From contig CAYZNH010000001.1 of NCBI GenBank assembly GCA_964479775.1, forward strand, positions 30,032 to 76,009: a stretch of 45,978 nucleotides of DNA, given 5' to 3'. Below, one piece after another: positions 4,079-38,878 of this stretch. A model generated the notes under the pieces. The model was not told where the DNA came from and made no database searches. It saw only the letters and a program-made list of their open reading frames with translations. The position numbers and the translations under genes were made by a program. The stretch comes from an uncultured Candidatus Saccharibacteria bacterium (GTDB lineage Bacteria; Patescibacteriota; Minisyncoccia; Phycocordibacterales; GWA1-40-21). The first letter of the stretch is position 1. Each line of letters begins with the position of its first letter.

Positions 4079-4600
4079 ATGAAAGAAATTGGAATTATAA
4101 GTCACAAGCCTAAAATATTTATCGGTACCGATCATGCGGGTTTTGTTATAAAAGAAAATTTAATTCCATATATAAAAAAATTAGGTTATGAGGTTGTAGA
4201 TTTTGGTAATTTTAAATATGATGATACGGATGATTACATAGATTTTATTACTCCGGTTGCAAGAACTGTAGCTTTAAATCCAGAAGGCTCAAAAGGTATA
4301 ATTTTGGGTGGCTCTGGTCAAGGAGAAGCTATTGTGGCAAATCGTTTTCCTAATGTTCGGGCTGTTGTTTATTATGGAGAGGCTGGTTTTTTTCAAACTG
4401 ATATTATTAAACTTAGTAGGGAGCACAATGATTCAAATGTTCTTTCTTTAGGAGCTAGGTTTATAGATGTAGATACAGCGAAAAAAGTTGTAAAAAAATG
4501 GTTAGAAACAAAGTTTACAGGTGAGGAAAGACACTCAAGAAGGATTAAAAAAATCGAAGCAGTGTCTAGAGAAATTAAAAATAATATAGAATTTAAATAA
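4079..4600 (+). CDS. rpiB: ribose-5-phosphate isomerase B (RpiB/LacAB family)
   Basis: IFIGTDHAGFVIKENLIPYIKKLGYEVVDFG and GILLGGSGQGEAIVANR-type motifs. Extended -10 TGgTATAAT at 4064-4072 lies 6 nt from the ATG. Confidence 0.85.
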   Translation: MKEIGIISHKPKIFIGTDHAGFVIKENLIPYIKKLGYEVVDFGNFKYDDTDDYIDFITPVARTVALNPEGSKGIILGGSGQGEAIVANRFPNVRAVVYYGEAGFFQTDIIKLSREHNDSNVLSLGARFIDVDTAKKVVKKWLETKFTGEERHSRRIKKIEAVSREIKNNIEFK

Positions 4601-4604
4601 AAAA

Positions 4605-5333
4605 ATGACTGAGATAATCCCTGCAATAATACCAGAATCTTTTGAAGATTTAAAAGATAAGATGGCTTTCGTCAATGGACTTACTCATATGGTTCAGATA
4701 GATGTTTGTGATGGTGTTTTTGTTCCTTCTAAAAGTTGGCCTTATGTTGGTGATCATGAAAATGATTTTGATAAAATTATAAATGAGTCTGATGGTTTTC
4801 CTTTTTGGCAAACCTTAGATTTTGAGGTTGACTTAATGGTTAAAAATCCAGAGAAAGTTTTTGAAGATTGGGTTAGAGCGGGTGCAAAGAGAATTATTTT
4901 ACATGTCGAATCATCTTTAAAGTTATTTGATTTTGTAAAAGATATAAAAAATAAATACGGGTATTATGGAGAATCTGCTGTTAGTATAGAGGTTGGTATC
5001 TCATTAAATATAAAGACTCCCAATGAAGTAATTTTTGATTTTCTTAAACCAAATGAGAGCGGTAGGTCTCTAGTTGATTTCGTTCAATTTATGGGGATTA
5101 GAGACATTGGTTTTCAAGGTCAATATTTTGATGAAAGGGTTCTGGGAAAGATAAGAGAACTTAGACAAGAATTTCCAGATACCATAATTAGTGTTGATGG
5201 TGGTGTAAATTTTGATAATGTAACAGAATTAGTAAAAGCCGGAGTAAACAGACTTGTATCTGGATCTGCATTATATGAAAGTGAAGATATTGGAGAAGCC
5301 ATAAATGAGATGAAAAATATTAATTTAAAGTAA
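4605..5333 (+). CDS. rpe: ribulose-phosphate 3-epimerase family protein
   Basis: QIDVCDGVFVP and C-terminal ISVDGGVN...AGVNRLVSGSALY resemble Rpe TIM-barrel motifs. Sits next to rpiB. Confidence 0.65.
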   Translation: MTEIIPAIIPESFEDLKDKMAFVNGLTHMVQIDVCDGVFVPSKSWPYVGDHENDFDKIINESDGFPFWQTLDFEVDLMVKNPEKVFEDWVRAGAKRIILHVESSLKLFDFVKDIKNKYGYYGESAVSIEVGISLNIKTPNEVIFDFLKPNESGRSLVDFVQFMGIRDIGFQGQYFDERVLGKIRELRQEFPDTIISVDGGVNFDNVTELVKAGVNRLVSGSALYESEDIGEAINEMKNINLK

Positions 5334-5343
5334 TTTTGTTTTT

Positions 5344-5559
5344 ATGCAGAAAGGTATATATAAACATTATAAAGGTAATTTTTATCGAGTGATAGGTGAA
5401 GGAAAGCATTCTGAGACTTTAGAGGATTTGGTTTTTTATGAAGCTTTGTATAATAATCCAGTATCAAGATTTTGGATGAGACCTTTAAAAATGTTTAATG
5501 ATGAAATCGATACATTAGATGGAAAGAAGAAAAGATTTATTTTTATAAGAGAAGAATAA
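5344..5559 (+). CDS. DUF1653-like small protein
   Basis: YKHYKGNFYRVIGEGKHSETLEDLVFYEALY...RFWMRPLKMF is the pattern I recognise as DUF1653. Confidence 0.55.
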   Translation: MQKGIYKHYKGNFYRVIGEGKHSETLEDLVFYEALYNNPVSRFWMRPLKMFNDEIDTLDGKKKRFIFIREE

Positions 5560-6541: not shown

Positions 6542-6570
6542 TTGACAAATACCCCAAAAGGTGTATTATT
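6542..6570 (+). promoter_or_regulatory. sigma70-type promoter of GC-rich cassette 1
   Basis: TTGACA 6542-6547, 16-nt spacer, TATTAT 6564-6569 preceded by TG. A second TTGACAA copy lies 20 nt upstream at 6522-6528. Confidence 0.6.
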
Positions 6571-6576
6571 ATATAT

Positions 6577-6726
6577 AAGATAGTTCTTTGAGTGAATCAA
6601 GAAGTTCGCCACATTTTTTAGTGGATTTACCATATAAATCAATTGAATTGATTTCGGGCAAGCAAAAGTCTATTGAAAACTGTGGCGAACTGTAGTAACC
6701 ACACAGAAAGAAACAAAAAAGAAAGG
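6577..6726 (+). promoter_or_regulatory. about 150-nt structured 5' leader of cassette 1
   Basis: 10-bp long-range stem GTTCGCCACA (6604-6613) / TGTGGCGAAC (6681-6690) encloses the hairpin AAATCAA-TTGAA-TTGATTT. The block CTGTGGCGAACTGTAGTA resembles the cassette 2 leader. Confidence 0.45.
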
Positions 6727-7416
6727 ATGATAATAGTGAACACACTAATTACATCTGGTCAGAAGGAATCGGTTATTCGAGTCGTTGTGGACGCAGTGCG
6801 AAAGGGAATGGACGCGGTGATCAATGAACTCTCCGCTTCTGGAACCATTAACACGGCGAATCTTCAGCGAGTGCTCGCACAAGGTGATGCTTTGGCGGGT
6901 CATCTGATTGCCGAAGCGAAAGCTAAGATGACCGAGCTCGCCGAACAAGTCGTCGGCTACCTCAAACTCATCTCTGGCTCCGAAATCATCACAATCGGCG
7001 AGACCTATGGCAAAAGCACCATTGCTCATGCCAAGGACACCTTTCCTGGATACATTGACTCAGATTTCCTGAACTATGGAACGGATGTCCAAGGTCAGCC
7101 GACCAAGGAAATACCTGTACAGGTGTTTGAGATGATCAAGAATGGTAACTTCGCTCAGATATTCGGTGGCTTCGGTGAAAACCTCGACCGTCTGTGTCTG
7201 ACACAGAGTCAAATCATCCGTTTTGTGAAGGATCACACCAAGTGGCTTCGCACAGATGGTTATGGAACCTTCTTCTTGTTCAAGGAAAACGGCGAGTTTT
7301 TCGTCGCTGGCGTGAGCTGGAGCGAGGGTAGGCTCAGGGTGGATGCTAGTCGTCTGTCGGACGACGGCGTTTGGAATGCCTGGTTCCGCCATCGGGTTGT
7401 GGTTCCGCAACTGTGA
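6727..7416 (+). CDS. hypothetical protein, GC-rich cassette 1 (distant paralogue of 28639-29298)
   Basis: The ORF track starts at TTG 6673. ATG 6727 (MIIVNTL...), preceded by AAAGGA, is the more likely start. Hand count gives 33/60 GC in 6781-6840 versus 20/60 in the neighbouring fba (6301-6360). I recognise no family. Confidence 0.6.
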   Translation: MIIVNTLITSGQKESVIRVVVDAVRKGMDAVINELSASGTINTANLQRVLAQGDALAGHLIAEAKAKMTELAEQVVGYLKLISGSEIITIGETYGKSTIAHAKDTFPGYIDSDFLNYGTDVQGQPTKEIPVQVFEMIKNGNFAQIFGGFGENLDRLCLTQSQIIRFVKDHTKWLRTDGYGTFFLFKENGEFFVAGVSWSEGRLRVDASRLSDDGVWNAWFRHRVVVPQL

Positions 7417-7418
7417 CA

Positions 7419-7470
7419 CTTTGTCACTTTGTTCTTTGTCTCTTTGAGACTTAGACACTTTGACCCTTTG
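7419..7470 (+). repeat. six CTTTG motifs at 7-8 nt (once 16 nt) spacing in the cassette 1 3' UTR
   Basis: CTTTG at 7419, 7427, 7434, 7442, 7458 and 7466, starting immediately after the TGA stop (7414-7416). Confidence 0.7.
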
Positions 7471-7509
7471 GTATCTTGCGTATGCAAGCTCTACCGAAGG
7501 GTCATTTTT
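7463..7509 (+). terminator. rho-independent terminator of cassette 1
   Basis: GACCCTTTGG (7463-7472) pairs with CCGAAGGGTC (7494-7503). Inner hairpin CTTGC-GTAT-GCAAG, then ATTTTT. Confidence 0.75.
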
Positions 7510-7541
7510 AATATAAAATTTGTTATTTTTTATAAAAAGAC

Positions 7542-9709: not shown

Positions 9710-9937
9710 ATGAAAAAAGATATACATCCAAAATATTTTGATAAAGCCGCTACTACTTGTGCTTGTGGTGCTAGTTATGACTTTGGATCAACAAAAGAAA
9801 ATATAAATATTGAAATTTGTGCTGCATGTCACCCTTTCTATACCGGTAATGAAAAGGTTATAGACACAGCTGGAAGAGTAGAAAAATTTAAAGCAAGAAA
9901 GGCCGCAAGTGTTGGAAAAAGTAAAAAAACAAAATAA
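9710..9937 (+). CDS. rpmE: 50S ribosomal protein L31
   Basis: MKKDIHPKY...CACG...CAACHPFYTG is the classic L31 pattern. Confidence 0.9.
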   Translation: MKKDIHPKYFDKAATTCACGASYDFGSTKENINIEICAACHPFYTGNEKVIDTAGRVEKFKARKAASVGKSKKTK

Positions 9938-10104
9938 CTGTTAGAATAGAAAAATCGTGCTTTTAAAGTGCGATTTTTTTATTGTTTATCTGTTAAAGTT
10001 TGTCAATGTTTAAACATTATTTTATACTGTAAAAATAGTAGAATAGAAAAACCCGTATCTTTTATTAATAAAATTTTTTCTGGTGAATAATTACAAACAA
10101 TAAA

Positions 10105-11097
10105 ATGCAAGATTCAATTGAAGAATTTAGAAAAAATAAAAAAACTTCATTTTTAGCAGAAGAATATATTAGATTGGAAAATGAAGAAGAGTCTATAAAA
10201 GAAATGGCGGAAAAAGACTCTGCTATGTTTGCTTTAGCTGAGGAAGAGTTAAATAATCTCCGAACTCAAAAAGAAAATATTTTTACACAAATGAAATCTA
10301 TCACTTCTTCAGAAGAAGAGGAGGATAAATTTCCAAATGAAGTTGTGATGGAAATTCGTGCAGGTGTTGGTGGTGAAGAAGCGGCTATTTTTGCAGAGGA
10401 TTTGTTGAGAATGTATGGAAGATTAGCAGATCTTAAAAAATGGTCTTTTAATTTGGTTGATGAATCAAAAAGTTCTTTGGGTGGGTATAAAGAAGTTTCT
10501 ATTGAAATAAAAGGTAGAGATGTATATAAAGAATTGAGGTTTGAGACTGGGGTTCATAGAGTTCAGAGAGTTCCCGCCACTGAAAAATCTGGAAGAGTAC
10601 ATACTTCAACGGCTTCTGTTGCGATACTTCCCATAAGAAAGAAGACAAAATTTGATATTAAACAAACAGATTTACAGATTGAATTTTCTAGATCTGGTGG
10701 AGCTGGTGGTCAAAATGTAAATAAAGTTGAAACCGCCGTTAGAATAGTTCACATACCGACTGGAATAGATGTTAGATCAACTGCAGAAAGAAGTCAGTTA
10801 AAAAACAGGGAAAAAGCGATGTCTATTCTTATTGCTAAATTAGAAATCTTAAAAGAAGAAGAAGAAGCAAAGAAGTTTGCTGGTGAAAGAAAAGAACAGA
10901 TAGGTACAGCCGATAGATCAGAGAAAATTAGAACTTATAATATCTTACAAGATAGAGTTACTGATCATAGGGTTAAACATTCTTGGTATAATATAGAAAA
11001 TATTTTAGCAGGAGATGGTCTTGTTGATATTGTTGATTATGTTGTTAAGGCAGAGTGTAAGCCACAGGCAGATGGTGATGTAAATAACGATGAATAA
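10105..11097 (+). CDS. prfA: peptide chain release factor 1
   Basis: PAT tripeptide (RVPATEKSGRVHTS) and GGQ motif (SGGAGGQNVNKVETAVRIVHIPTG). Confidence 0.9.
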   Translation: MQDSIEEFRKNKKTSFLAEEYIRLENEEESIKEMAEKDSAMFALAEEELNNLRTQKENIFTQMKSITSSEEEEDKFPNEVVMEIRAGVGGEEAAIFAEDLLRMYGRLADLKKWSFNLVDESKSSLGGYKEVSIEIKGRDVYKELRFETGVHRVQRVPATEKSGRVHTSTASVAILPIRKKTKFDIKQTDLQIEFSRSGGAGGQNVNKVETAVRIVHIPTGIDVRSTAERSQLKNREKAMSILIAKLEILKEEEEAKKFAGERKEQIGTADRSEKIRTYNILQDRVTDHRVKHSWYNIENILAGDGLVDIVDYVVKAECKPQADGDVNNDE

Positions 11098-11152: not shown

Positions 11153-11163
11153 CATTCTTACTT

Positions 11164-11898
11164 ATGATAGAAGAAAAGAAAACAAATTCAACTGCCTCTA
11201 CACAGGCAAAAAATAATGAAATTATAGAAGCAATGTTTAAAGTAGGTGCTCATTTTGGTTATCCAAAATCAAGAAGAAATGCCTCTGTATCAGGTTATGT
11301 TTATGGTACAAAAAATAAAACAGAAATTATAGATTTAGAAAAAACTTATGAAATGCTTGAAATAGCAACTAAGTTTGTTGCTGAACTAGCTTCACTTGGT
11401 AAACAAATTTTGTTTGTTAGTGGAAAAAATGAATCAAAGAACGCCATAAAGATTGGTGCTATGTCTGCTGATATGCCGTATGTTGCTGGTAGATGGATTG
11501 GTGGAACACTTACAAATTCTTTTGAAATTAAGAAGAGGGTTTCAAAATTTGAAGATTTACAAAAACAAAAAGAAAAAGGGGAGCTTTCAAAATATACAAA
11601 AAGAGAGAGAATGTTGATTGAGAAAGAAATAGAAAATCTTGATAAAATGTTCTCAGGTATTGTTGGTATGAAAGATTTACCTAAGGCTATTTTTGTTATT
11701 GATCCTAAAAAAGAAATAATAGCAGTATCTGAAGCAAAGAAAATGAATGTTCCTGTAATTGCTTTGGCTAATACAGATTGCGATATTAAAGGTATAGATT
11801 ATCCAATAGTTGCAAATGACGCTTCTTTATCTAGTGTAACTTTTTTTGTTAATGAGATAGTAAAAGCTTATAAAGTTGGTAAAAATTCTAAAAATTAA
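11164..11898 (+). CDS. rpsB: 30S ribosomal protein S2
   Basis: MFKVGAHFGY, GGTLTN and a VIALANTDCD-type motif. Canonical rpsB-tsf order. Confidence 0.9.
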   Translation: MIEEKKTNSTASTQAKNNEIIEAMFKVGAHFGYPKSRRNASVSGYVYGTKNKTEIIDLEKTYEMLEIATKFVAELASLGKQILFVSGKNESKNAIKIGAMSADMPYVAGRWIGGTLTNSFEIKKRVSKFEDLQKQKEKGELSKYTKRERMLIEKEIENLDKMFSGIVGMKDLPKAIFVIDPKKEIIAVSEAKKMNVPVIALANTDCDIKGIDYPIVANDASLSSVTFFVNEIVKAYKVGKNSKN

Positions 11899-11912
11899 TT
11901 TTTAAAATACAT

Positions 11913-12500
11913 ATGGAGATAACAATGGATCAAGTAAAAGAACTTAGAGAAAAAACAGGTATTTCTATAATGCAATGTAAAAAAGCCCTTGAAGATTCTA
12001 ATGGTGATATGGGTAAAGCGGTTATTTTATTACAAAAGAAAGGTGTAGAAACTGCTGCTAAAAAAGCTGAAAGAACATTGAAATCAAGTAGAATTGTTTC
12101 TTATGTTCATGGTGTTGGCACCGTTGGTGTTCTTTTGGAACTATGTAGTGAGTCAGATTTTGTATCTAAACATGAAGATTTTCAAAAACTTGGTTATGAC
12201 ATTGCTATGCAAATAGCTGCTACTAATCCATCTTTTCTTAAAAAAGATGATGTTCCAGAAGAAGAAAAGAATAAAGTCCTATCAGCTTTTGAAGATGAAG
12301 TAAAAGATAAACCAGAGGCCATGAAAGAAAAGATATTAAATGGAAAATTAGATTCATTCTTTAAAGAAAAGATATTGTTGGAACAAGATTTTATAAAAGA
12401 TCCTAGTATAAATATCAATACTTTGATTCAAGGTGCAATTCAAAAATTTGGAGAGAAGATAGAAATAGCAAGATTTGTTAGATATACTTCTGCAAAATAG
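11913..12500 (+). CDS. tsf: elongation factor Ts (short form)
   Basis: VKELREKTGISIMQCKKALEDSNGDMGKAVILLQKKG is a UBA-like N-terminus. Follows rpsB. Confidence 0.9.
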   Translation: MEITMDQVKELREKTGISIMQCKKALEDSNGDMGKAVILLQKKGVETAAKKAERTLKSSRIVSYVHGVGTVGVLLELCSESDFVSKHEDFQKLGYDIAMQIAATNPSFLKKDDVPEEEKNKVLSAFEDEVKDKPEAMKEKILNGKLDSFFKEKILLEQDFIKDPSININTLIQGAIQKFGEKIEIARFVRYTSAK

Positions 12501-12535
12501 TTTGTCAGGTTATTCTTATTAGGAATAACATCAAA

Positions 12536-12916
12536 ATGATCTTAATTTTATTTTATACATCTTTATTTATTATTATAGCTACTCTGATAATTAAAAGTAT
12601 TGGAGTAACTATTTTTGATCATATAGTTCTTAAGAAGATAAGGAGAGTTGGTGATAAAAGATGTTATGATTTTATTTGTGTAGTAAATTATTATTTTTCT
12701 AAAATTAAACTAAAAAATTTTAAAAAAATATCATTGTTAATAATTACTTTTGTTCAAAGAGAAACTATTTATTTAAAAAGAAAATTTGACAGTAAACAAC
12801 CAAAATTTTTCCTTAAACCTCAAAAAAATAATTTAAATAGTAAAAGTTCTGTCTCTTTTTTTCTTAAAAATGTGTCAGAGTATAAAGAAAGTTTAAGAAA
12901 AAATAGGTTAGATTAA
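12536..12916 (+). CDS. hypothetical small membrane/lysine-rich protein (uncertain)
   Basis: 126-aa ORF in very AT-rich DNA with one N-terminal hydrophobic helix. No recognisable motif, so it may not be a real gene. Confidence 0.3.
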   Translation: MILILFYTSLFIIIATLIIKSIGVTIFDHIVLKKIRRVGDKRCYDFICVVNYYFSKIKLKNFKKISLLIITFVQRETIYLKRKFDSKQPKFFLKPQKNNLNSKSSVSFFLKNVSEYKESLRKNRLD

Positions 12917-16577: not shown

Positions 16578-18977
16578 ATGAAAATATCTTACAATTGGTT
16601 AAATGCTTTTTTAAACAATAAAGCACCAGAGGCTCAAAAAGTAGCAGAGGCTCTTACGATGAATTCTATGGAAGTTGAAGGAGTAGAAAAACTTTCTAAT
16701 GATTTTTTGATGGAAGTAAAGACAACTCCAGACAAAAACCATTCTTGTTTATGTCACAGGGGTGTTGCAAAAGAAGCTGGGGCTATTCTTAATATAAAGA
16801 CAATAAAAAAATCTAGAGAGTATGCTGATTTTAAAATTTCTGAAACTGATAAAAAAATTGATGTAAAGATTGAAGATGAAAAACTTTGTAAAAGATATAT
16901 TGGTAGGGTTATAGAAGGTATAAAAGTTGGACCATCGCCACTTTGGCTAAAAGAGAGATTAGAATCGGTCGGACAGAGGTCTATAAATAACGTTGTTGAT
17001 GCAACAAATTTTGTAATGTTTGATATTGGCCAACCAATGCATGTTTTTGATGCGGATAAAATTGACGGACGGATTATTGTAAGGAAAGCCTTACAAGATG
17101 AACAAGTTGATTTATTAGGTCATGAAATAACTGCTAAGGGGGGAGAAACAATGATTCAGGACAGAAATATGACTCTTTCTGGTTCTGAGCTTGTTATAAC
17201 AGATAATAGCTCTGTTTTAGCTTTGGCGGGTATAAAGGGGGGTAAAAAAGCTGAATTAACAGATGAATCAGTAAATCTATTTTTGGAATCAGCAAATTTT
17301 GATCCAGTTTGTATTAGAAAGACAGCGAGCTTTTTTAAATTACAAACTGATGCCACAAAAAGATATGAGAATGAAATAAGTCCAGAAATTGCTTCTGAAG
17401 CCATGGATATTTTGACTAGAATAATAATTGAGACAGCAGGAACTCCTGATACGAAAATTGGTGAGATGGTGGATAATTATCCAAGAAGAGAAAATAAATT
17501 TAAACTTGGTATTTCAAGTGAAGAGGCTAGCTCTATAATTGGTGCTGACATAAAAGATTCTGACATAGAAGATATCTTTAATAGATTTGATTTTGAATGG
17601 AAAAAAGTTAAACCAATAGATGAAATTTTAAAAACAGCTGAGTCTTTTGTTGATGTACCTTATAAACTCGGTGCGAGTGTTTTAAGAGAAGCACCTAATT
17701 TTTTTGATTGTTCAGGTTTCATGTGTTTTTTATTTAATAATTATGGTGTATCTCTTCCTAGAATTTCAGTTGATCAATATGTTTGGGGAAAGAAAATTGA
17801 TAAAGAAGATTTAATCTCTGGCGATGTTATTTATTCAAATACAGGAGAAGGGAAGATACATACAAAAACAATAGAATTTTTGCCCGGTACAGATGTTTCT
17901 GAAGGAGTTGATCATTGTGGTTTGTATTTAGGAAATAATAAAATAATTCATGCAACCTCACTTTTTGGTAAGGTCATTATTGAAGATTTAGATAAGGCTG
18001 AAAGATTTAAAAATATAGTAGGGTTTAGAAGAATGTCTGATAATAAAGAAAGATTTGTTATTACTGTACCTGACGAAAGACTTGATCTTCGAATTAAAGA
18101 GGATTTAGCAGAAGATATAGGAAGAATATATGGTTATGATAAAGTAAAAGATTTAGAAATTCCAAAGAACATAGAAAAACCTAAAATTGATCAGGTTTTT
18201 GCCTATAAGCAGAGGATAAAAGAAATTCTTTATGAGGAGGGTTTTTCTGAAGTTATGAATTATACTTTTGTTGAGGATGGGGATTTTGAATTGGCAAATC
18301 CAACTTCACCAGAAAAAAGATTTTTAAGAACGAATCTTACTTTTGGTATGAAAAATTGTTTAGAATTTAATTCAAGATATTCTGAACTTATTGATATGCA
18401 ACAAATTAGAGTTTTTGAATTTGGCCATGTATTTTTAAAGTCTGGAGAGGAAAATCATTTTATAATTGGTATTAAAAATCCGCCAGGTTTTAAGACTATA
18501 AAAGAAAAAGAGTATTTAGATTCAATTTTAAAGAAACTCGAAGAAAAACTTGGACTTAAGCTTAATAAAATAAATAATGACGACAATATTGCTGAGTTTG
18601 ATCTAGATATTTTAGTAAAAGGATTACCAGAATTAACAGAATATAAACCAGAAATTTTCTCAGACGAATGGATTAAATTTAAACATATATCTCAATATCC
18701 TTTTATGACTCGTGATATAGCAGTTTTTACACCGGAAGGAACTAAACCTGAAGAAGTTTTTTCTATTATTTCTAGTGAGGCCGGAGAGCTTATGATAAAA
18801 AATAGACTTTTTGATGTATTTACAAAAAAGTTTCCTGATGGAGTATCAAAGACATCTTATGCATATCGTTTAATTTTTCAATCTTATGAAAAAACTCTTT
18901 CAGATGAAGAGGTGAATGTGATAATGCAAAAAATTACAGATAAGATGAATGCTAATGTTGGTTGGCAAGTAAGATAG
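16578..18977 (+). CDS. pheT: phenylalanine--tRNA ligase beta subunit with an inserted NlpC/P60-like domain
   Basis: MKISYNWL start, B3/4 region (QPMHVFDADKI), B5 halves (KFKLGISSEEASSIIG... and ...VITVPDERLDLRIKEDLAEDIGRIYGYDKV), and C-terminal FDVF...SYAYRLIFQS. Residues about 345-490 are an NlpC/P60 module. Confidence 0.9.
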   Translation: MKISYNWLNAFLNNKAPEAQKVAEALTMNSMEVEGVEKLSNDFLMEVKTTPDKNHSCLCHRGVAKEAGAILNIKTIKKSREYADFKISETDKKIDVKIEDEKLCKRYIGRVIEGIKVGPSPLWLKERLESVGQRSINNVVDATNFVMFDIGQPMHVFDADKIDGRIIVRKALQDEQVDLLGHEITAKGGETMIQDRNMTLSGSELVITDNSSVLALAGIKGGKKAELTDESVNLFLESANFDPVCIRKTASFFKLQTDATKRYENEISPEIASEAMDILTRIIIETAGTPDTKIGEMVDNYPRRENKFKLGISSEEASSIIGADIKDSDIEDIFNRFDFEWKKVKPIDEILKTAESFVDVPYKLGASVLREAPNFFDCSGFMCFLFNNYGVSLPRISVDQYVWGKKIDKEDLISGDVIYSNTGEGKIHTKTIEFLPGTDVSEGVDHCGLYLGNNKIIHATSLFGKVIIEDLDKAERFKNIVGFRRMSDNKERFVITVPDERLDLRIKEDLAEDIGRIYGYDKVKDLEIPKNIEKPKIDQVFAYKQRIKEILYEEGFSEVMNYTFVEDGDFELANPTSPEKRFLRTNLTFGMKNCLEFNSRYSELIDMQQIRVFEFGHVFLKSGEENHFIIGIKNPPGFKTIKEKEYLDSILKKLEEKLGLKLNKINNDDNIAEFDLDILVKGLPELTEYKPEIFSDEWIKFKHISQYPFMTRDIAVFTPEGTKPEEVFSIISSEAGELMIKNRLFDVFTKKFPDGVSKTSYAYRLIFQSYEKTLSDEEVNVIMQKITDKMNANVGWQVR

Positions 18978-28108: not shown

Positions 28109-28438
28109 ATGAAAAAAGATACTTCATTTTATGATTTTGTTATTTATGATTTGATGAATAGCCTTTCTGATATTTCTTCACGACCAATGATGAGTGGTTG
28201 GTGTATTTATTCTAATAAAATTCCTTTTGCTGCGATTATTGGAAATGAACTATTTTTTAAAGTAAAAGATAGTGAGATGAAAGAGAAGTTAAAAAAACTT
28301 GGATCTCTACAATTTAAATATAAAAAGAAAGATAAAAAAGTAGTAACGATGTCTTACTGGTCTGTACCAGAAGAGTCGATAGATAACTCAGATTTATTTC
28401 TTGAATTGGCGAATGAAGTTATAAAAGGCGTAATTTGA
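28109..28438 (+). CDS. TfoX N-terminal domain protein
   Basis: LSDISSRPMMSGWCIYSNKIPFAAIIGNELFFKV matches the TfoX_N pattern (R.MFGG..ly..g..fa.i.d..lylK). Confidence 0.55.
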   Translation: MKKDTSFYDFVIYDLMNSLSDISSRPMMSGWCIYSNKIPFAAIIGNELFFKVKDSEMKEKLKKLGSLQFKYKKKDKKVVTMSYWSVPEESIDNSDLFLELANEVIKGVI

Positions 28439-28463
28439 CAAGTGATATTAATAGGTGTATAAT
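28435..28463 (+). promoter_or_regulatory. perfect-consensus sigma70 promoter of GC-rich cassette 2
   Basis: TTGACA 28435-28440 (overlaps the TGA stop of the upstream gene), 17-nt spacer, TATAAT 28458-28463. Shares TTGACAA and AGGTGTAT with the cassette 1 promoter. Confidence 0.7.
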
Positions 28464-28469
28464 TAACAT

Positions 28470-28638
28470 AGAGTAAGGTCTTTAAAAAGTCATTTAAAAT
28501 TTGCCACAGCAGAAAGTCTTTAGATTATTGAGGTCTTTCTGCTGTGGCAAAACTACAGTACTTTTAGCTCTCTCTTATAACTAAGGCAATTCCGCTTTAG
28601 AATATTAGACGGCAGAAGTAGAAGGAAGGAAACTGACC
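28470..28638 (+). promoter_or_regulatory. about 170-nt structured 5' leader of cassette 2
   Basis: Perfect 16-bp stem, 28501-28516 (TTGCCACAGCAGAAAG) with 28535-28550 (CTTTCTGCTGTGGCAA). Followed by AACTACAGTA, then SD GAAGGAAGGA at 28621-28630. Confidence 0.55.
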
Positions 28639-29298
28639 ATGGATATCATGCTCAGAGAAGTACTAAAGGAACTCGTATATGTCCAAGAAAATCTTCTTGG
28701 GATAATTTACGACTTCTTGAAGAAGTTGAATGCCGACAAGACGGGGGAATTTTTGAAGCGATTCAAACTTTTTCTTCGTGACGAGCTCGTCGTTAGTAAA
28801 CCCGTTCGAGTTTGGAAAACGTGGATGACGATCAAACTCGGCACACTCAAGAATGTTGAAGAAATTCGCAAAGCCCTCAAGGCTGGCGGAAACAACATCA
28901 GTGACTGGGCGAATGACATCCTCGGCAAGCCCGCTTTCACGGTGAGCGAAACCGAACAGGAAGTCGAACTCGTGAATGTCTCCGTCGAAGAGTTGGGCTT
29001 CAAGCAAGGTGCTTGCTATGCAGACATCTGCAAGCGTGCATTGGAGCTTGGACTCGACCTGTGTCCTGCTGAAGTTGGTCCCCAACTGCGTTTGCAGTAT
29101 AAGGATCAGCCCAAGGGAACATACGTGGTAGTGGCGATGAATGCTATTATCGCTTCGGATGGCGATCTCATCGTGTTCGGTGTGGGGAGTTACGATGGTA
29201 GCGATCAGTATCTCGATGCCGACTTCGGCTATGCTGGCTATGTCTGGGTCGCTCACAGCCGTTTTGTGTTCCTGCGTCGCAAGAGCACTCAGAACTAG
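28639..29298 (+). CDS. hypothetical protein, GC-rich cassette 2 (distant paralogue of 6727-7416)
   Basis: 219-aa ORF with an SD 8 nt upstream. Hand count gives 34/60 GC in 28921-28980. The C-terminal region LCPAEVGPQLRLQYKDQPKG...VFGVGSYDG...LDAD...VWVAHSRFVFLRRK aligns by eye with the C-terminus of cassette 1. Confidence 0.65.
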   Translation: MDIMLREVLKELVYVQENLLGIIYDFLKKLNADKTGEFLKRFKLFLRDELVVSKPVRVWKTWMTIKLGTLKNVEEIRKALKAGGNNISDWANDILGKPAFTVSETEQEVELVNVSVEELGFKQGACYADICKRALELGLDLCPAEVGPQLRLQYKDQPKGTYVVVAMNAIIASDGDLIVFGVGSYDGSDQYLDADFGYAGYVWVAHSRFVFLRRKSTQN

Positions 29299-29368
29299 GT
29301 CCCTCAGATCTTTTGGATCCTTGGACCTTGGTTTAGTTAGAAGTACTGAAAAGGATGGTTAATAAATT

Positions 29369-29408
29369 GGCGGTGTTCTGTGTAATGCAGAACATCGCCT
29401 TTTCTTTT
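29369..29408 (+). terminator. rho-independent terminator of cassette 2
   Basis: GGCGGTGTTCTG (29369-29380) / CAGAACATCGCC (29388-29399), then TTTTCTTTT. Confidence 0.8.
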
Positions 29409-29541
29409 GGAAAATAACGAGCGAAGCGACTATATTTTCCTAGACCCCATTAAACTTTTTTGATTATTAAATTATTTATATAATAATTATATATATGTAA
29501 CTTATGTAAATAATATACAAAAGTAAAAAGTTGTACGGGGT
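29409..29541. repeat. second copy of the hairpin-plus-GC-clamp AT-rich element
   Basis: Stem GGAAAATA (29409-29416) / TATTTTCC (29433-29440). Its 16-nt loop ACGAGCGAAGCGACTA is 14/16 identical to the loop at 16356-16371. Then ACCCC (29444-29448) ... GGGGT (29537-29541) around AT-rich DNA. Confidence 0.55.
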
Positions 29542-29559
29542 TTTGCATTTTTTTGTATT

Positions 29560-29666
29560 GTCATTACGAGAAGGTACTCCGACGTAGTAATCCATGTTTG
29601 TATTTATTTTTAAAATTAAATTAATTAACCTGGATTGCCACAGGTGAGTACACCTTCGCAATGACG
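29560..29666. repeat. palindromic double-hairpin repeat (GCGAAGC-core family), copy 2
   Basis: The left arm is GTCATTACGAGAAGGTACTCCGACGTAGTAATCCATG. The reverse complement of the right arm is CGTCATTGCGAAGGTGTACTCACCTGTGGCAATCCAGG. An AT-rich loop of about 32 nt separates them, and the ends match copy 27642-27709. Confidence 0.65.
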
Positions 29667-29669
29667 TGC

Positions 29670-29681
29670 GGGGGGGGGGGG
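29670..29681. repeat. G12 homopolymer tract
   Basis: Twelve consecutive G (29670-29681) immediately after the palindromic element, in a genome of about 30% GC. Confidence 0.9.
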
Positions 29682-29791
29682 TATTATTGATAGTGAGCGA
29701 AGCTGAGCTTTTTGAAAGCCTTACGGAAATAAATTTGTAGCAACAAATTTCTTGAGTAGAGAATAAATTTTCTGACGAAAAAATTTATATC

Positions 29792-37525: not shown

Positions 37526-37609
37526 GCGTAGGTGGCGGAGTGGTCAATCGCAACTGACTGTAAATCAGTCGTCCTATGGACTACGTAGGTTCAAATCCTA
37601 CCCTACGCA
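37526..37609 (+). tRNA. tRNA-Tyr (anticodon GUA), long variable arm, CCA not encoded
   Basis: Acceptor GCGTAGG/CCTACGC, 3-bp D stem GCG/CGC, anticodon stem ACTGA/TCAGT with loop CTGTAAA. Variable arm GTCC-TAT-GGAC, T arm GTAGG-TTCAAAT-CCTAC, discriminator A. Confidence 0.9.
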
Positions 37610-37613
37610 CAAA

Positions 37614-37638
37614 ATAAATCGCGAATAGCGATTTTTTT
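37614..37638 (+). terminator. terminator after tRNA-Tyr
   Basis: AATCGC (37617-37622) / GCGATT (37628-37633), then T7. Confidence 0.7.
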
Positions 37639-37946
37639 GTGCGTAGGAGAAAGTGCTGGGGAGCACTTTCGTGTAGGATTTGAAGCCCGATTGAGCAGAT
37701 TTTGTGAGTGTTAACGAAACAAAATATCCAATCGGGGTACTGATCCTGTAAGGATCAAAATTCCTACCCATTCTTAGAATTTGAAAGACGGAAATCATTT
37801 TTATAGTAATAAATTTAATTGAGTCGGGGTCGCATAATTTTACGAACGACGGTGAGTAAAATATATGTGACCAAATCCTACCCTAAACTACTTTTAAAAA
37901 AAATAGGAAACCTGTACTGACCATGTAATGGTCAAAATTCCTACCT
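37639..37946 (+). repeat. array of tRNA-Tyr 3'-end-derived fragments (one inverted, three direct)
   Basis: GTGCGTAGG (37639-37647) and GTAGGATTTGAA (37673-37684) are reverse complements of tRNA positions 37602-37610 and 37590-37601. Direct copies occur at three sites. TCAAAATTCCTACCC lies at 37755-37769. CAAATCCTACCCTA at 37872-37885 is a 14-nt exact match to 37592-37605. TCAAAATTCCTACC lies at 37932-37945. Confidence 0.75.
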
Positions 37947-37999
37947 TATATACTAAAAACATTCTTTATTTTGTAGTTTAGATTAGATTTGAATTAAAC

Positions 38000-38122: not shown

Positions 38123-38878
38123 ATGAAGAGTAATGGTAACTGGAGTGAAAACAATTGGTCAGTTTTTTTGTGGCGGTTTTTTGGTTCGTCTATCGTTGGG
38201 CTCATTCTACCAGTTTTTGTTGGACTTTTCTGCTGTCTCTTCCGTTGCCTTGATGGCTGGAAAAGTCATCATTGGACGACGGAGGGCTTGTGGAGTTATC
38301 TGGCTATAACTGGTACGTTCGGATTCGTTTTCTTTTGTCTGAATTTCTGGTCAGAACACGCTCACATTTTTGTGACCAGACTGGAGAATGGAATAATCAT
38401 TTATGATAAGGCGAAAGGAAATCTTAGGGTAATAAGGGTGTTAGATCGGGTGATATTTGTTCGCGATAACCACCCATTCCTTAGTGATCTCTTTAAACTT
38501 TTTGTTATGTATGAGAGACACGGTGGTGAAGTCACTGTTCATCCAGTGACGGCAAATCCTAAAGTTCGGGATATTACATGTTATCTTTGTCTCAAGGTTG
38601 AAGCGATGACAGTTGAAAACCTCAATCGAGTGATTCGCTTTGTAGGTTTTGATCATCTCGGGTTTGCATATAGTTGGAGTGAAAGTGCAGATCTCAGTGA
38701 TGTTGCTAGAAGTTTACTCTATGATTTCGCAGAAGCTTATTCTCGAGACCTAGGTACACTCTTTAATCCGCTGAACGAAGACCAACAAGCCAGGTTCAAA
38801 GAATGGCTCACTGCCTTCGTCAATCCGAAACTGGCGGGATCTGGACTCGTGGTTGATTCTTGTTCCTTCAGTATATAA
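38123..38878 (+). CDS. hypothetical two-TM membrane protein, GC-enriched cassette 3
   Basis: Strong SD GAGGAAGGAG (38107-38116). Two hydrophobic helices (about residues 13-40 and 56-76), then a soluble domain of about 170 aa that I do not recognise. Confidence 0.6.
   Translation: MKSNGNWSENNWSVFLWRFFGSSIVGLILPVFVGLFCCLFRCLDGWKSHHWTTEGLWSYLAITGTFGFVFFCLNFWSEHAHIFVTRLENGIIIYDKAKGNLRVIRVLDRVIFVRDNHPFLSDLFKLFVMYERHGGEVTVHPVTANPKVRDITCYLCLKVEAMTVENLNRVIRFVGFDHLGFAYSWSESADLSDVARSLLYDFAEAYSRDLGTLFNPLNEDQQARFKEWLTAFVNPKLAGSGLVVDSCSFSI

Follow-up and report, generated by a model that had tools for sequence, protein, structure and literature searches.

Two solo cassettes in a Patescibacterial genome, each very probably encoding a variable protein of a diversity-generating retroelement

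The first survey of diversity-generating retroelements (DGRs) in Patescibacteria, the candidate phyla radiation (CPR), is reportedly that of Paul et al. 2017, Nat Microbiol 2:17045. The DGRs of these bacteria correspond to the "CPR set" of Wu et al. (2018, PMC5758913) and to DGR clade 2 of Roux et al. (2021, PMC8144416), and the latter authors suspected novel C-type lectin variants for the CPR targets (PMC8144416). Remote targets on which a DGR acts in trans have been documented (PMC5758913), and surveys requiring a reverse transcriptase (RT) beside the variable region (VR) state that remote targets are missed (Roux et al. 2021, PMC8144416). The present analysis concerns two expression cassettes, cassette 1 (6542-7509) and cassette 2 (28435-29408), in a stretch of 45,978 nucleotides from an uncultured Candidatus Saccharibacteria bacterium (contig CAYZNH010000001.1 of assembly GCA_964479775.1, positions 30,032 to 76,009; hereafter, the window, to which all cassette coordinates refer). 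Both cassettes are self-contained transcription units, and with a probability of about 0.9, judged from sequence comparisons, each encodes a Patescibacterial DGR variable protein, as a remote target or as an orphan. The window has ~30% GC overall with two islands of ~50% GC at 6600-7500 and 28800-29400, and these two compositional islands in a Patescibacterial genome of ~30% GC are explained as DGR targets. A preliminary description of cassette 2 had missed this identity, namely that the two genes stand alone and encode variable proteins of a Patescibacterial DGR lineage which is known and abundant.

Two target protein families and their DGR loci

The open reading frame (ORF) of cassette 2 (28639..29298, on the plus strand, as are all cassette features given here) encodes a DGR variable protein of 219 aa, which defines family 2, and that of cassette 1 (6736..7416) encodes one of 226 aa when read from GTG 6736, or of 229 aa from an alternative ATG at 6727, which defines family 1. 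Among 90%-identity clusters, 940 homologues of the cassette 2 protein (E ≤ 1e-3) and 395 homologues of the cassette 1 protein were found, and the profile of the cassette 2 family gave 6322 matches at E ≤ 1e-3 against 50%-identity representatives. The homologues of both proteins carry source names pointing to Patescibacteria/Paceibacteria, and neither protein has a family in Pfam or PHROGs. In the alignments of both families (A1 and A2), the body of the protein is well conserved and the last ~40 to 45 residues alternate between invariant and hypervariable columns, the latter holding N, D, Y, H, S, G, C, R, F, L, I, V, and A in both families. Such a set of residues is the hallmark of AAY codons mutagenised at their adenines by a DGR. 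The fraction of A at third codon positions is 0.00 to 0.05 in the two VRs, the value for cassette 2 being 0.00.

The DGR identity is displayed by related loci, of which 80 were fetched per family, genome loci for family 2 and metagenome loci for family 1. An RT ORF with LGNLTSQ and YADD motifs is present in 27 of the 80 family 2 loci, mostly 0.8 to 1.4 kb downstream of the target gene and on the same strand, and an RT is present in 22 of the 80 family 1 loci. In family 2, the last 130 to 137 nt of the target gene are repeated ~490 bp downstream as a template repeat (TR), and 224 of the 227 mismatches between VR and TR (12 VR/TR pairs from 11 loci) are located at TR adenines. The corresponding repeat of family 1 comprises the last ~118 nt of the target gene and is found ~450 bp downstream; TR adenines account for 219 of its 235 mismatches (14 VR/TR pairs from 14 loci). 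An antisense ORF of 113 to 123 aa between TR and RT was identified as Pfam bAvd (E values of 7e-14 and 4.5e-10), and the RTs match Pfam RVT_1, both as confirmed in one locus per family. This Avd gene is oriented antisense to the target gene, the TR, and the RT, filling the spacer between the last two, as seen in loci L082 (7139-7480, minus strand), L016 (11038-11409, minus strand), and L161 (11160-11336, minus strand). The order in the complete loci of relatives is target gene, TR ~450 to 490 bp downstream, antisense Avd, and DGR-type RT. Since the VR/TR mismatches are adenine specific and occur together with bAvd and RVT_1 matches, the relatives of both cassettes are genuine DGR variable proteins, and two very large "hypothetical protein" families gain a role as DGR targets. 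The DGR cores of the two families have the same gene order, both with antisense Avd, with RTs 60% identical and Avd proteins 34% identical; the cores linked to families 1 and 2 are sister systems.

By homology to the VRs of the 12 family 2 VR/TR pairs from 11 loci, the VR of cassette 2 (VR2) was placed at 29146..29282, ending ...CGTCGCAA (RRK), and that of cassette 1 (VR1) was placed at 7299..7413, ending ...GTTCCGCAACTG (VPQL), by homology to family 1 loci. Cassette 1 is a second DGR target gene, of a family different from that of cassette 2, and the C-terminal columns which the preliminary description had aligned by eye between the two proteins lie in the VR scaffolds. Among the relatives fetched for cassette 1, locus L161 is the closest, and its target gene adjoins TR, Avd, and RT. 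Its target protein is 82% identical to that of cassette 1, and its DNA is ~85% identical over window positions 6664-7526, i.e., from the leader to just past the terminator, with 79% identity in the promoter region and different flanks. Specifically, a codon-by-codon comparison of VR1 with the L161 TR shows differences at AAY codons, the remainder being mostly at third positions.

AlphaFold2 was used to predict the structures of both proteins, and the models, with pLDDT (predicted local distance difference test) values of 87.5 for cassette 2 and 89.5 for cassette 1, begin with a helical module and continue with an alpha/beta domain. In the cassette 2 protein, the N-terminal module (aa 1-58; 28639..28812), with predicted helices at residues 3-13, 17-32, and 37-46, is weakly conserved in alignment A1 and swapped among paralogues. 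It is followed by a conserved alpha/beta core upstream of the VR (28813..29145), which includes the invariant CPAEVGPQL motif and has a GC content at third codon positions (GC3) of 0.60. Note that for a few family 2 genes (loci L051, L062, L064, and L071) the contig label is Bryobacterales, Limisphaerales, Syntrophorhabdaceae (a 5.5-Mb chromosome), or Verrucomicrobiota; either these contigs were mis-binned or chimerically assembled, or the family does occur outside Patescibacteria.

Solo targets and the explanations considered for them

In the 46-kb window, permissive blastn detected no TR-like copy of VR1 or VR2, and a Pfam scan of the 30 large ORFs of the window revealed no RVT_1 or bAvd domain. 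With TR, RT, and Avd absent from the window, both cassettes are remote or orphan targets and not a complete DGR. When targets are limited to those flanked by 3 kb or more on each side, 30 of 54 in family 2 and 8 of 24 in family 1 have no RT in the locus, so that roughly a third to a half of the adequately flanked family members are solo. Given this share and the reliance of surveys on RT adjacency, the reach of DGRs in episymbiotic bacteria is probably underestimated.

The genes of the window may be orphans, or remote targets on which DGR cores at other genomic sites would act in trans. By analogy with the DGR of Bordetella phage BPP-1, for which the mechanism is established, RT and Avd would copy the TR RNA into complementary DNA (cDNA), misincorporating opposite adenines, and the cDNA would replace the VR, rewriting AAY codons and thereby altering a ligand-binding surface. 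As the DNA of VR1 bears no relation to that of VR2, each would require a TR of its own. A congener whose gyrB is 97% (amino acids) and 88.6% (nucleotides) identical to that of the window has a 248-kb contig on which at least four solo cassettes are interspersed with housekeeping genes. Two of its family 2 copies have cores that are 97.9% identical and VRs that are 71.5% identical, and 18 of the 39 VR differences fall in the 27 conserved TR-A columns (of 137), where ~8 were expected. The disparity between cores and VRs and the enrichment at TR-adenine columns indicate that these solo copies were diversified specifically in the VR.

Several results weigh against reading the window genes as DGR targets. 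Besides the missing TR copies and the missing RVT_1 and bAvd domains, the fold of the two proteins is not assignable: the top Foldseek matches of the cassette 2 protein in the Protein Data Bank (PDB) were the C-type lectin domains of Mincle and DCAR2, which were not significant (E values of 0.4 to 1.4 and TM-scores of ~0.3 to 0.45), the cassette 1 protein gave no meaningful match in the same search, and sequence-profile searches of the PDB with both families gave no match. Furthermore, none of the 120 closest relatives of the L161 RT is listed on the record that carries a protein 100% identical to that of cassette 1 (the cassette 1 record) or on the congener contig, although this is a weak test. 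In L161 itself (11160-12539), the RT is split into ORFs of 50 aa and 271 aa and Avd is a 58-aa fragment (11160-11336, minus strand), which reflects either a decaying element or sequencing errors; given this split RT and truncated Avd, a loss of the DGR core in the lineage of cassette 1 is plausible.

As an alternative, the two genes would be orphan relics, i.e., former DGR targets which lost TR, Avd, and RT and are now ordinary genes kept for their current binding specificity. We consider this quite possible, if on balance not the likelier outcome: the lack of TR and RT in the window, the state of RT and Avd in L161, the missing RT on the cassette 1 record among the best 120 RT relatives, and the many solo targets without a nearby TR speak for it, but the ORFs and VRs of both cassettes are intact, and the promoter, leader hairpin, post-VR element, and terminator are ~79 to 85% conserved at the nucleotide level with L161. 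Moreover, the solo copies of the congener, with cores 97.9% and VRs 71.5% identical, display VR-specific diversification, and DGRs are known to serve remote targets in trans (PMC5758913).

The base composition of the cassettes bears on a further explanation. Their GC3 is 0.57 to 0.61, compared with 0.13 to 0.23 in 13 host genes (~0.17). Averaged over 21 complete loci, the target cores have a GC content of 0.58 and a GC3 of 0.68, against 0.37 for the adjacent RT and 0.42 for the rest of the locus; in loci L004 to L078, target genes hold a GC3 of ~0.6 to 0.7 irrespective of host composition, and the neighbouring RT is at or below the host level. The elevated GC characterises the gene family as such and does not indicate recent transfer. 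Two sources of it were ruled out: adenine depletion, since third-position A and T are lowered about equally outside the VR, and recent horizontal transfer, since the divergence of the cassette core from the congener copy (~12% of nucleotides) equals that of gyrB (~11%), the high GC is family-wide, and the linked RT is host-like. Our guess is that GC-biased conversion among multi-copy cores explains the excess.

The preliminary description had instead suggested a dispersed family of expression cassettes which duplicates or moves as a whole unit, and not merely two foreign genes. In a fuller form of this view, the cassettes are copies of an autonomous or mobilisable unit that transposes or duplicates as such and came from a GC-richer donor. 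The dispersed family was borne out, as the cassettes are multi-copy and scattered in a congener, with positions that differ in close relatives. In the same direction point the L161 homology, which begins in the promoter region, ends shortly after the terminator, and has differing flanks, a GC3 three times the host value, and an identical protein, P0206, which was found in two contexts from two samples, with PriA and an EPSP synthase gene as its neighbours in L164 (10001-10615) and with gyrB in L165 (170-784). Nevertheless, we judge a mobile unit improbable, and its movement as a whole was not borne out. No terminal inverted repeats or target-site duplications beyond AT-rich chance matches flank either cassette, no recombinase (transposase/integrase) domain was detected among the 30 large ORFs scanned, and the two cassettes cannot be aligned at the DNA level. 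Paralogues in the congener are mosaic rather than whole-unit copies: in L001, those at 4258-5400 and 9751-10850 have near-identical leaders and cores (97.9%), unrelated N termini, and different 3' untranslated regions (UTRs), which points to modular recombination or gene conversion. A foreign origin is likewise not supported, as a core divergence on a par with that of gyrB argues against recent transfer and the high GC is family-wide next to a host-like RT. The double context of P0206, finally, could be a rearrangement or a repeat-induced misassembly.

That the GC islands are structured noncoding RNAs and the ORFs artefacts of stop-poor GC-rich sequence is practically negligible as an explanation: GC islands of AT-rich genomes often are RNA genes and a long antisense ORF is also present (28663-29256, 197 aa), but there are hundreds to thousands of homologues in the same frame with conservation at the amino acid level, the AlphaFold2 models are confident (pLDDT of 87 to 90), codons of residues identical between window and congener differ at the third position in ~20%, the VR variation is codon-structured, and no Rfam family matches.

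Leader hairpin, 3' elements, and relation between the cassettes

A covariance model, R1, was built from 14 leaders (13 of relatives and that of cassette 2). In the window it matches the cassette leaders only, at 28494..28569 in cassette 2 (63 bits, the sequence itself being in the seed; fold z-score against shuffles of -5.8) and at 6599..6706 in cassette 1 (54.7 bits, E value of ~8e-11, not in the seed; fold z-score of -5.4). The hairpin proper of cassette 2 (28500-28551) consists of 17 bp, a 1-nt mismatch, and 5 bp; in cassette 1 the base of the stem is formed by 6604-6613 and 6681-6690, with an enlarged loop. In the loci of relatives, R1 matches immediately precede target genes, in both families and mostly with a single match for each gene, and always score higher on the sense strand. 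The consensus is UUCGCCACAGC...AAAG-loop-UU...GCUGUGGCGAA, and the base sequence is conserved as UUCGCCACAGC / GCUGUGGCGAA or as GUCAUAGCC / GGCUAUGAC, with a conserved internal A-U/G.U step. In 41 sequences, 94% of the cells of the 22-bp pairing are paired, compared with 69% after shuffling and ~43% with slid partner columns, and compensatory changes occur at 18 of the 22 pairs, a G.U pair being conserved. The conserved G.U pair and the higher plus-strand scores suggest that the hairpin is a sense-strand RNA, and we infer that it may function as part of the sense-strand mRNA, influencing stability, processing, or translation. A role as the terminator of the upstream gene was ruled out, as the hairpin has no U tract, a fixed position relative to the target gene, and strand-specific G.U pairs. 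No Rfam 15 family matches the hairpin, permissive scans of both leaders yielding only sub-threshold miRNA-like hairpins, and no description of the leader hairpin or of the GC3 excess of the targets was found in the literature searched.

The cassette 2 promoter (28435..28463) comprises a -35 box TTGACA (28435-28440), a 17-nt spacer, and a -10 box TATAAT (28458-28463) with GGTG ahead of it; the perfect TTGACA-17-TATAAT promoter described earlier is thus present, with 12 of 12 consensus positions, and the arrangement TTGACA...GGTGTATAAT is seen again upstream of relatives, across loci. Also present are the other parts of the unit as first listed, i.e., a leader, given as ~170 nt and measuring ~175 nt from the -10 box to ATG 28639, a Shine-Dalgarno sequence AAGGA (28626-28630) 8 nt ahead of the ATG, the 219-aa ORF, and an intrinsic terminator (29369..29408) with a 14-bp stem followed by TTTTCTTTT. 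The GC content of 34/60 given for 28921-28980 is correct, but the ~57% claimed for the unit does not hold, as the entire ORF has 49%. Downstream of VR2, single-sequence folds predict a nested hairpin GGTCC..GATC-TTTTG-GATC..GGACC (29298..29327), which gives rise to the CTTGG repeats; the CTTTTGG/CCTTGG repeats of this 3' UTR are located at 29311-29331. In the central stem of the hairpin, four of five pairs are kept with compensatory changes in 12 family 2 sequences. As a separate observation, the 14 nt following the leader hairpin (28556-28569) are 86% complementary to 29335-29348, just before the terminator; this could permit 5'-3' UTR pairing in cassette 2 or may be due to chance, there being no counterpart in cassette 1.

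The cassette 1 promoter (6542..6569) consists of TTGACA, a 16-nt spacer, and TATTAT with GGTG ahead, matching the consensus at 11 of 12 positions. Both cassettes have sigma-70 promoters close to the consensus. The post-VR element (7410..7478) starts with a small hairpin GTGACA-CTT-TGTCAC over the stop codon and continues with six CTTTG units of 8-nt period, and the intrinsic terminator (7461..7509) is formed by an inverted repeat (7461-7473 / 7492-7504) that runs into a T stretch. Repeats in the 3' UTR occur family-wide, with a small hairpin directly after the VR and then pyrimidine-rich CTTTG/CTTGG units in nested stems before the terminator. By analogy, this post-VR element may be a candidate counterpart of the target-recognition hairpin of BPP-1.

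Cassette 2 had been proposed to be a paralogue of cassette 1 in promoter, leader, protein C terminus, and 3' UTR. TTGACAA and AGGTGTAT are indeed common to both promoters, and the short YTTGG/CTTTG repeats of both 3' UTRs are real (six CTTTG units in one, CTTTTGG/CCTTGG in the other). The resemblance of the leaders clearly goes beyond chance, R1 finding the leader of cassette 1 unseeded, and the promoter type is common to both. Concerning the C termini, hhalign reproduces the columns LC and VW.A..R, but BLASTP is not significant, with a best E value of 0.76 and an E value of 21 for a C-terminal match of 11/35. For the two families, hhalign gave P values of 0.0015 to 0.0017 and a probability of 15 to 17%; its score was reached by 0 of 150 column shuffles and 2 of 150 block shuffles. 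The order of predicted secondary structures in the AlphaFold2 models is similar over the C-terminal ~100 aa of both proteins. The proposed alignment at the nucleotide level failed, blastn with a word size of 7 giving no match, and a search of 1.84 billion representatives with the family 2 profile was uninformative on paralogy, its best 150 matches all belonging to family 2. The proposed paralogy is supported in part, by a common design, the leader hairpin, and a profile similarity that is weak but exceeds shuffles; the DNAs do not align and BLASTP gives no significant match. The cassettes share this design and probably a remote common origin, and the leader hairpin is the strongest link between them.

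A more far-reaching proposal is that the R1 hairpin and the post-VR hairpin/CTTTG array constitute a dedicated, so far undescribed cis-RNA module of Patescibacterial DGR targets, with the family-wide GC3 excess as a footprint of recurrent homogenisation among the units. We regard it as speculative and rather unlikely. If true, the module might mark transcripts or loci for RT-Avd or couple target expression to diversification, and it would let target genes function as stand-alone units, dispersed far from the DGR core.

Genomic setting and comparison with described systems

The Pfam scan of the 30 large ORFs identified housekeeping genes for Obg, GatB, fructose-bisphosphate aldolase, L25, RF-1, S2, EF-Ts, PheS/T, GyrB, ThrRS, DnaE, RNase HII, ClpB, and alanine racemase. 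Cassette 1 is located between the aldolase gene and rplY (L25), and cassette 2 has a TfoX_N gene on one side and the 3' end of dnaE on the other. In the Rfam 15 scan of the window, two tRNAs only were above the gathering score. The stretch between the cassette 2 terminator and the dnaE 3' end (29444-29541 and 29555-29690) contains a palindrome rich in AT, an inverted repeat with imperfect arms, and 12 consecutive G residues; the fold is not better than that of shuffles (z = -0.95).

Elsewhere in the window, the ORF for PheT, the phenylalanyl-tRNA synthetase beta subunit (16578-18977), has an NlpC/P60 peptidase domain inserted at residues 360-484. The 3' end of tRNA-Tyr (CAAATCCTACCCTA) is found again at 37872-37885, with a degraded copy at 37935-37948 (region 37526-37948), and copies of a T-arm-like 32-nt piece are present at 37737-37768 and 37914-37945. 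The repeats at 37526-37948 look like stacked att scars of integrative elements. They are followed by an ORF (38123-38878) encoding 251 aa with a transmembrane N terminus and without a Pfam match, with a GC3 of 0.38 compared with ~0.17 for the host, which may be cargo of an integrative element. Owing to its elevated GC, this ORF was considered as a third cassette; this was ruled out, as it has no R1 match, a transmembrane N terminus, and another context.

Among described systems, the DGRs of the CPR are the closest. The loci of the relatives resemble them in having a target gene, a TR, Avd, an RT with LGNLTSQ and YADD motifs, and adenine-specific VR/TR mismatches. Like the clade 2 targets, which have no recognisable transmembrane or Pfam domain (PMC8144416), the cassette proteins have neither. 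Unlike these DGRs, the targets of the window stand alone, with no TR or RT within 6 to 38 kb.

The BPP-1 DGR (mtd-avd-TR-brt) shares with the Patescibacterial loci a VR at the 3' end of the target gene, TR adenines at the first two positions of AAY, and the requirement for both Avd and RT. Guo et al. 2011 are said to have described a hairpin after the VR in BPP-1, and a predicted hairpin follows the VR in both cassettes. The systems differ in that Avd is antisense between TR and RT in the Patescibacterial loci and in that the target is here cellular and not a phage tail fibre; matches of the cassette proteins to the C-type lectin fold are not significant. As in the Treponema denticola DGR (TvpA), where one core serves scattered targets in trans (PMC5758913), the targets are dispersed; there, however, a single known TR of the same genome is matched by every remote VR, whereas the two cassettes, without a cognate TR in the window, would need two different TRs.

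Stem-loops in the 5' UTR, such as the ompA 5' stem-loop and RNase III sites, stabilise or regulate bacterial mRNAs. The R1 hairpin resembles ompA-type stem-loops in being a long sense-strand hairpin located downstream of a strong promoter and ahead of the Shine-Dalgarno sequence, and it differs from them in its conserved base sequence and, in the sequence searched, in its location directly upstream of DGR targets. As a well-supported structured RNA without an Rfam match adjoining DGR targets, it offers a handle for studying the regulation and targeting of hypermutation, the GC3 excess of targets over their own RT being a second one. In comparison with the systems described, the cassettes are thus part of a known kind of system, of which the leader RNA motif and the GC3 excess are interesting side features.

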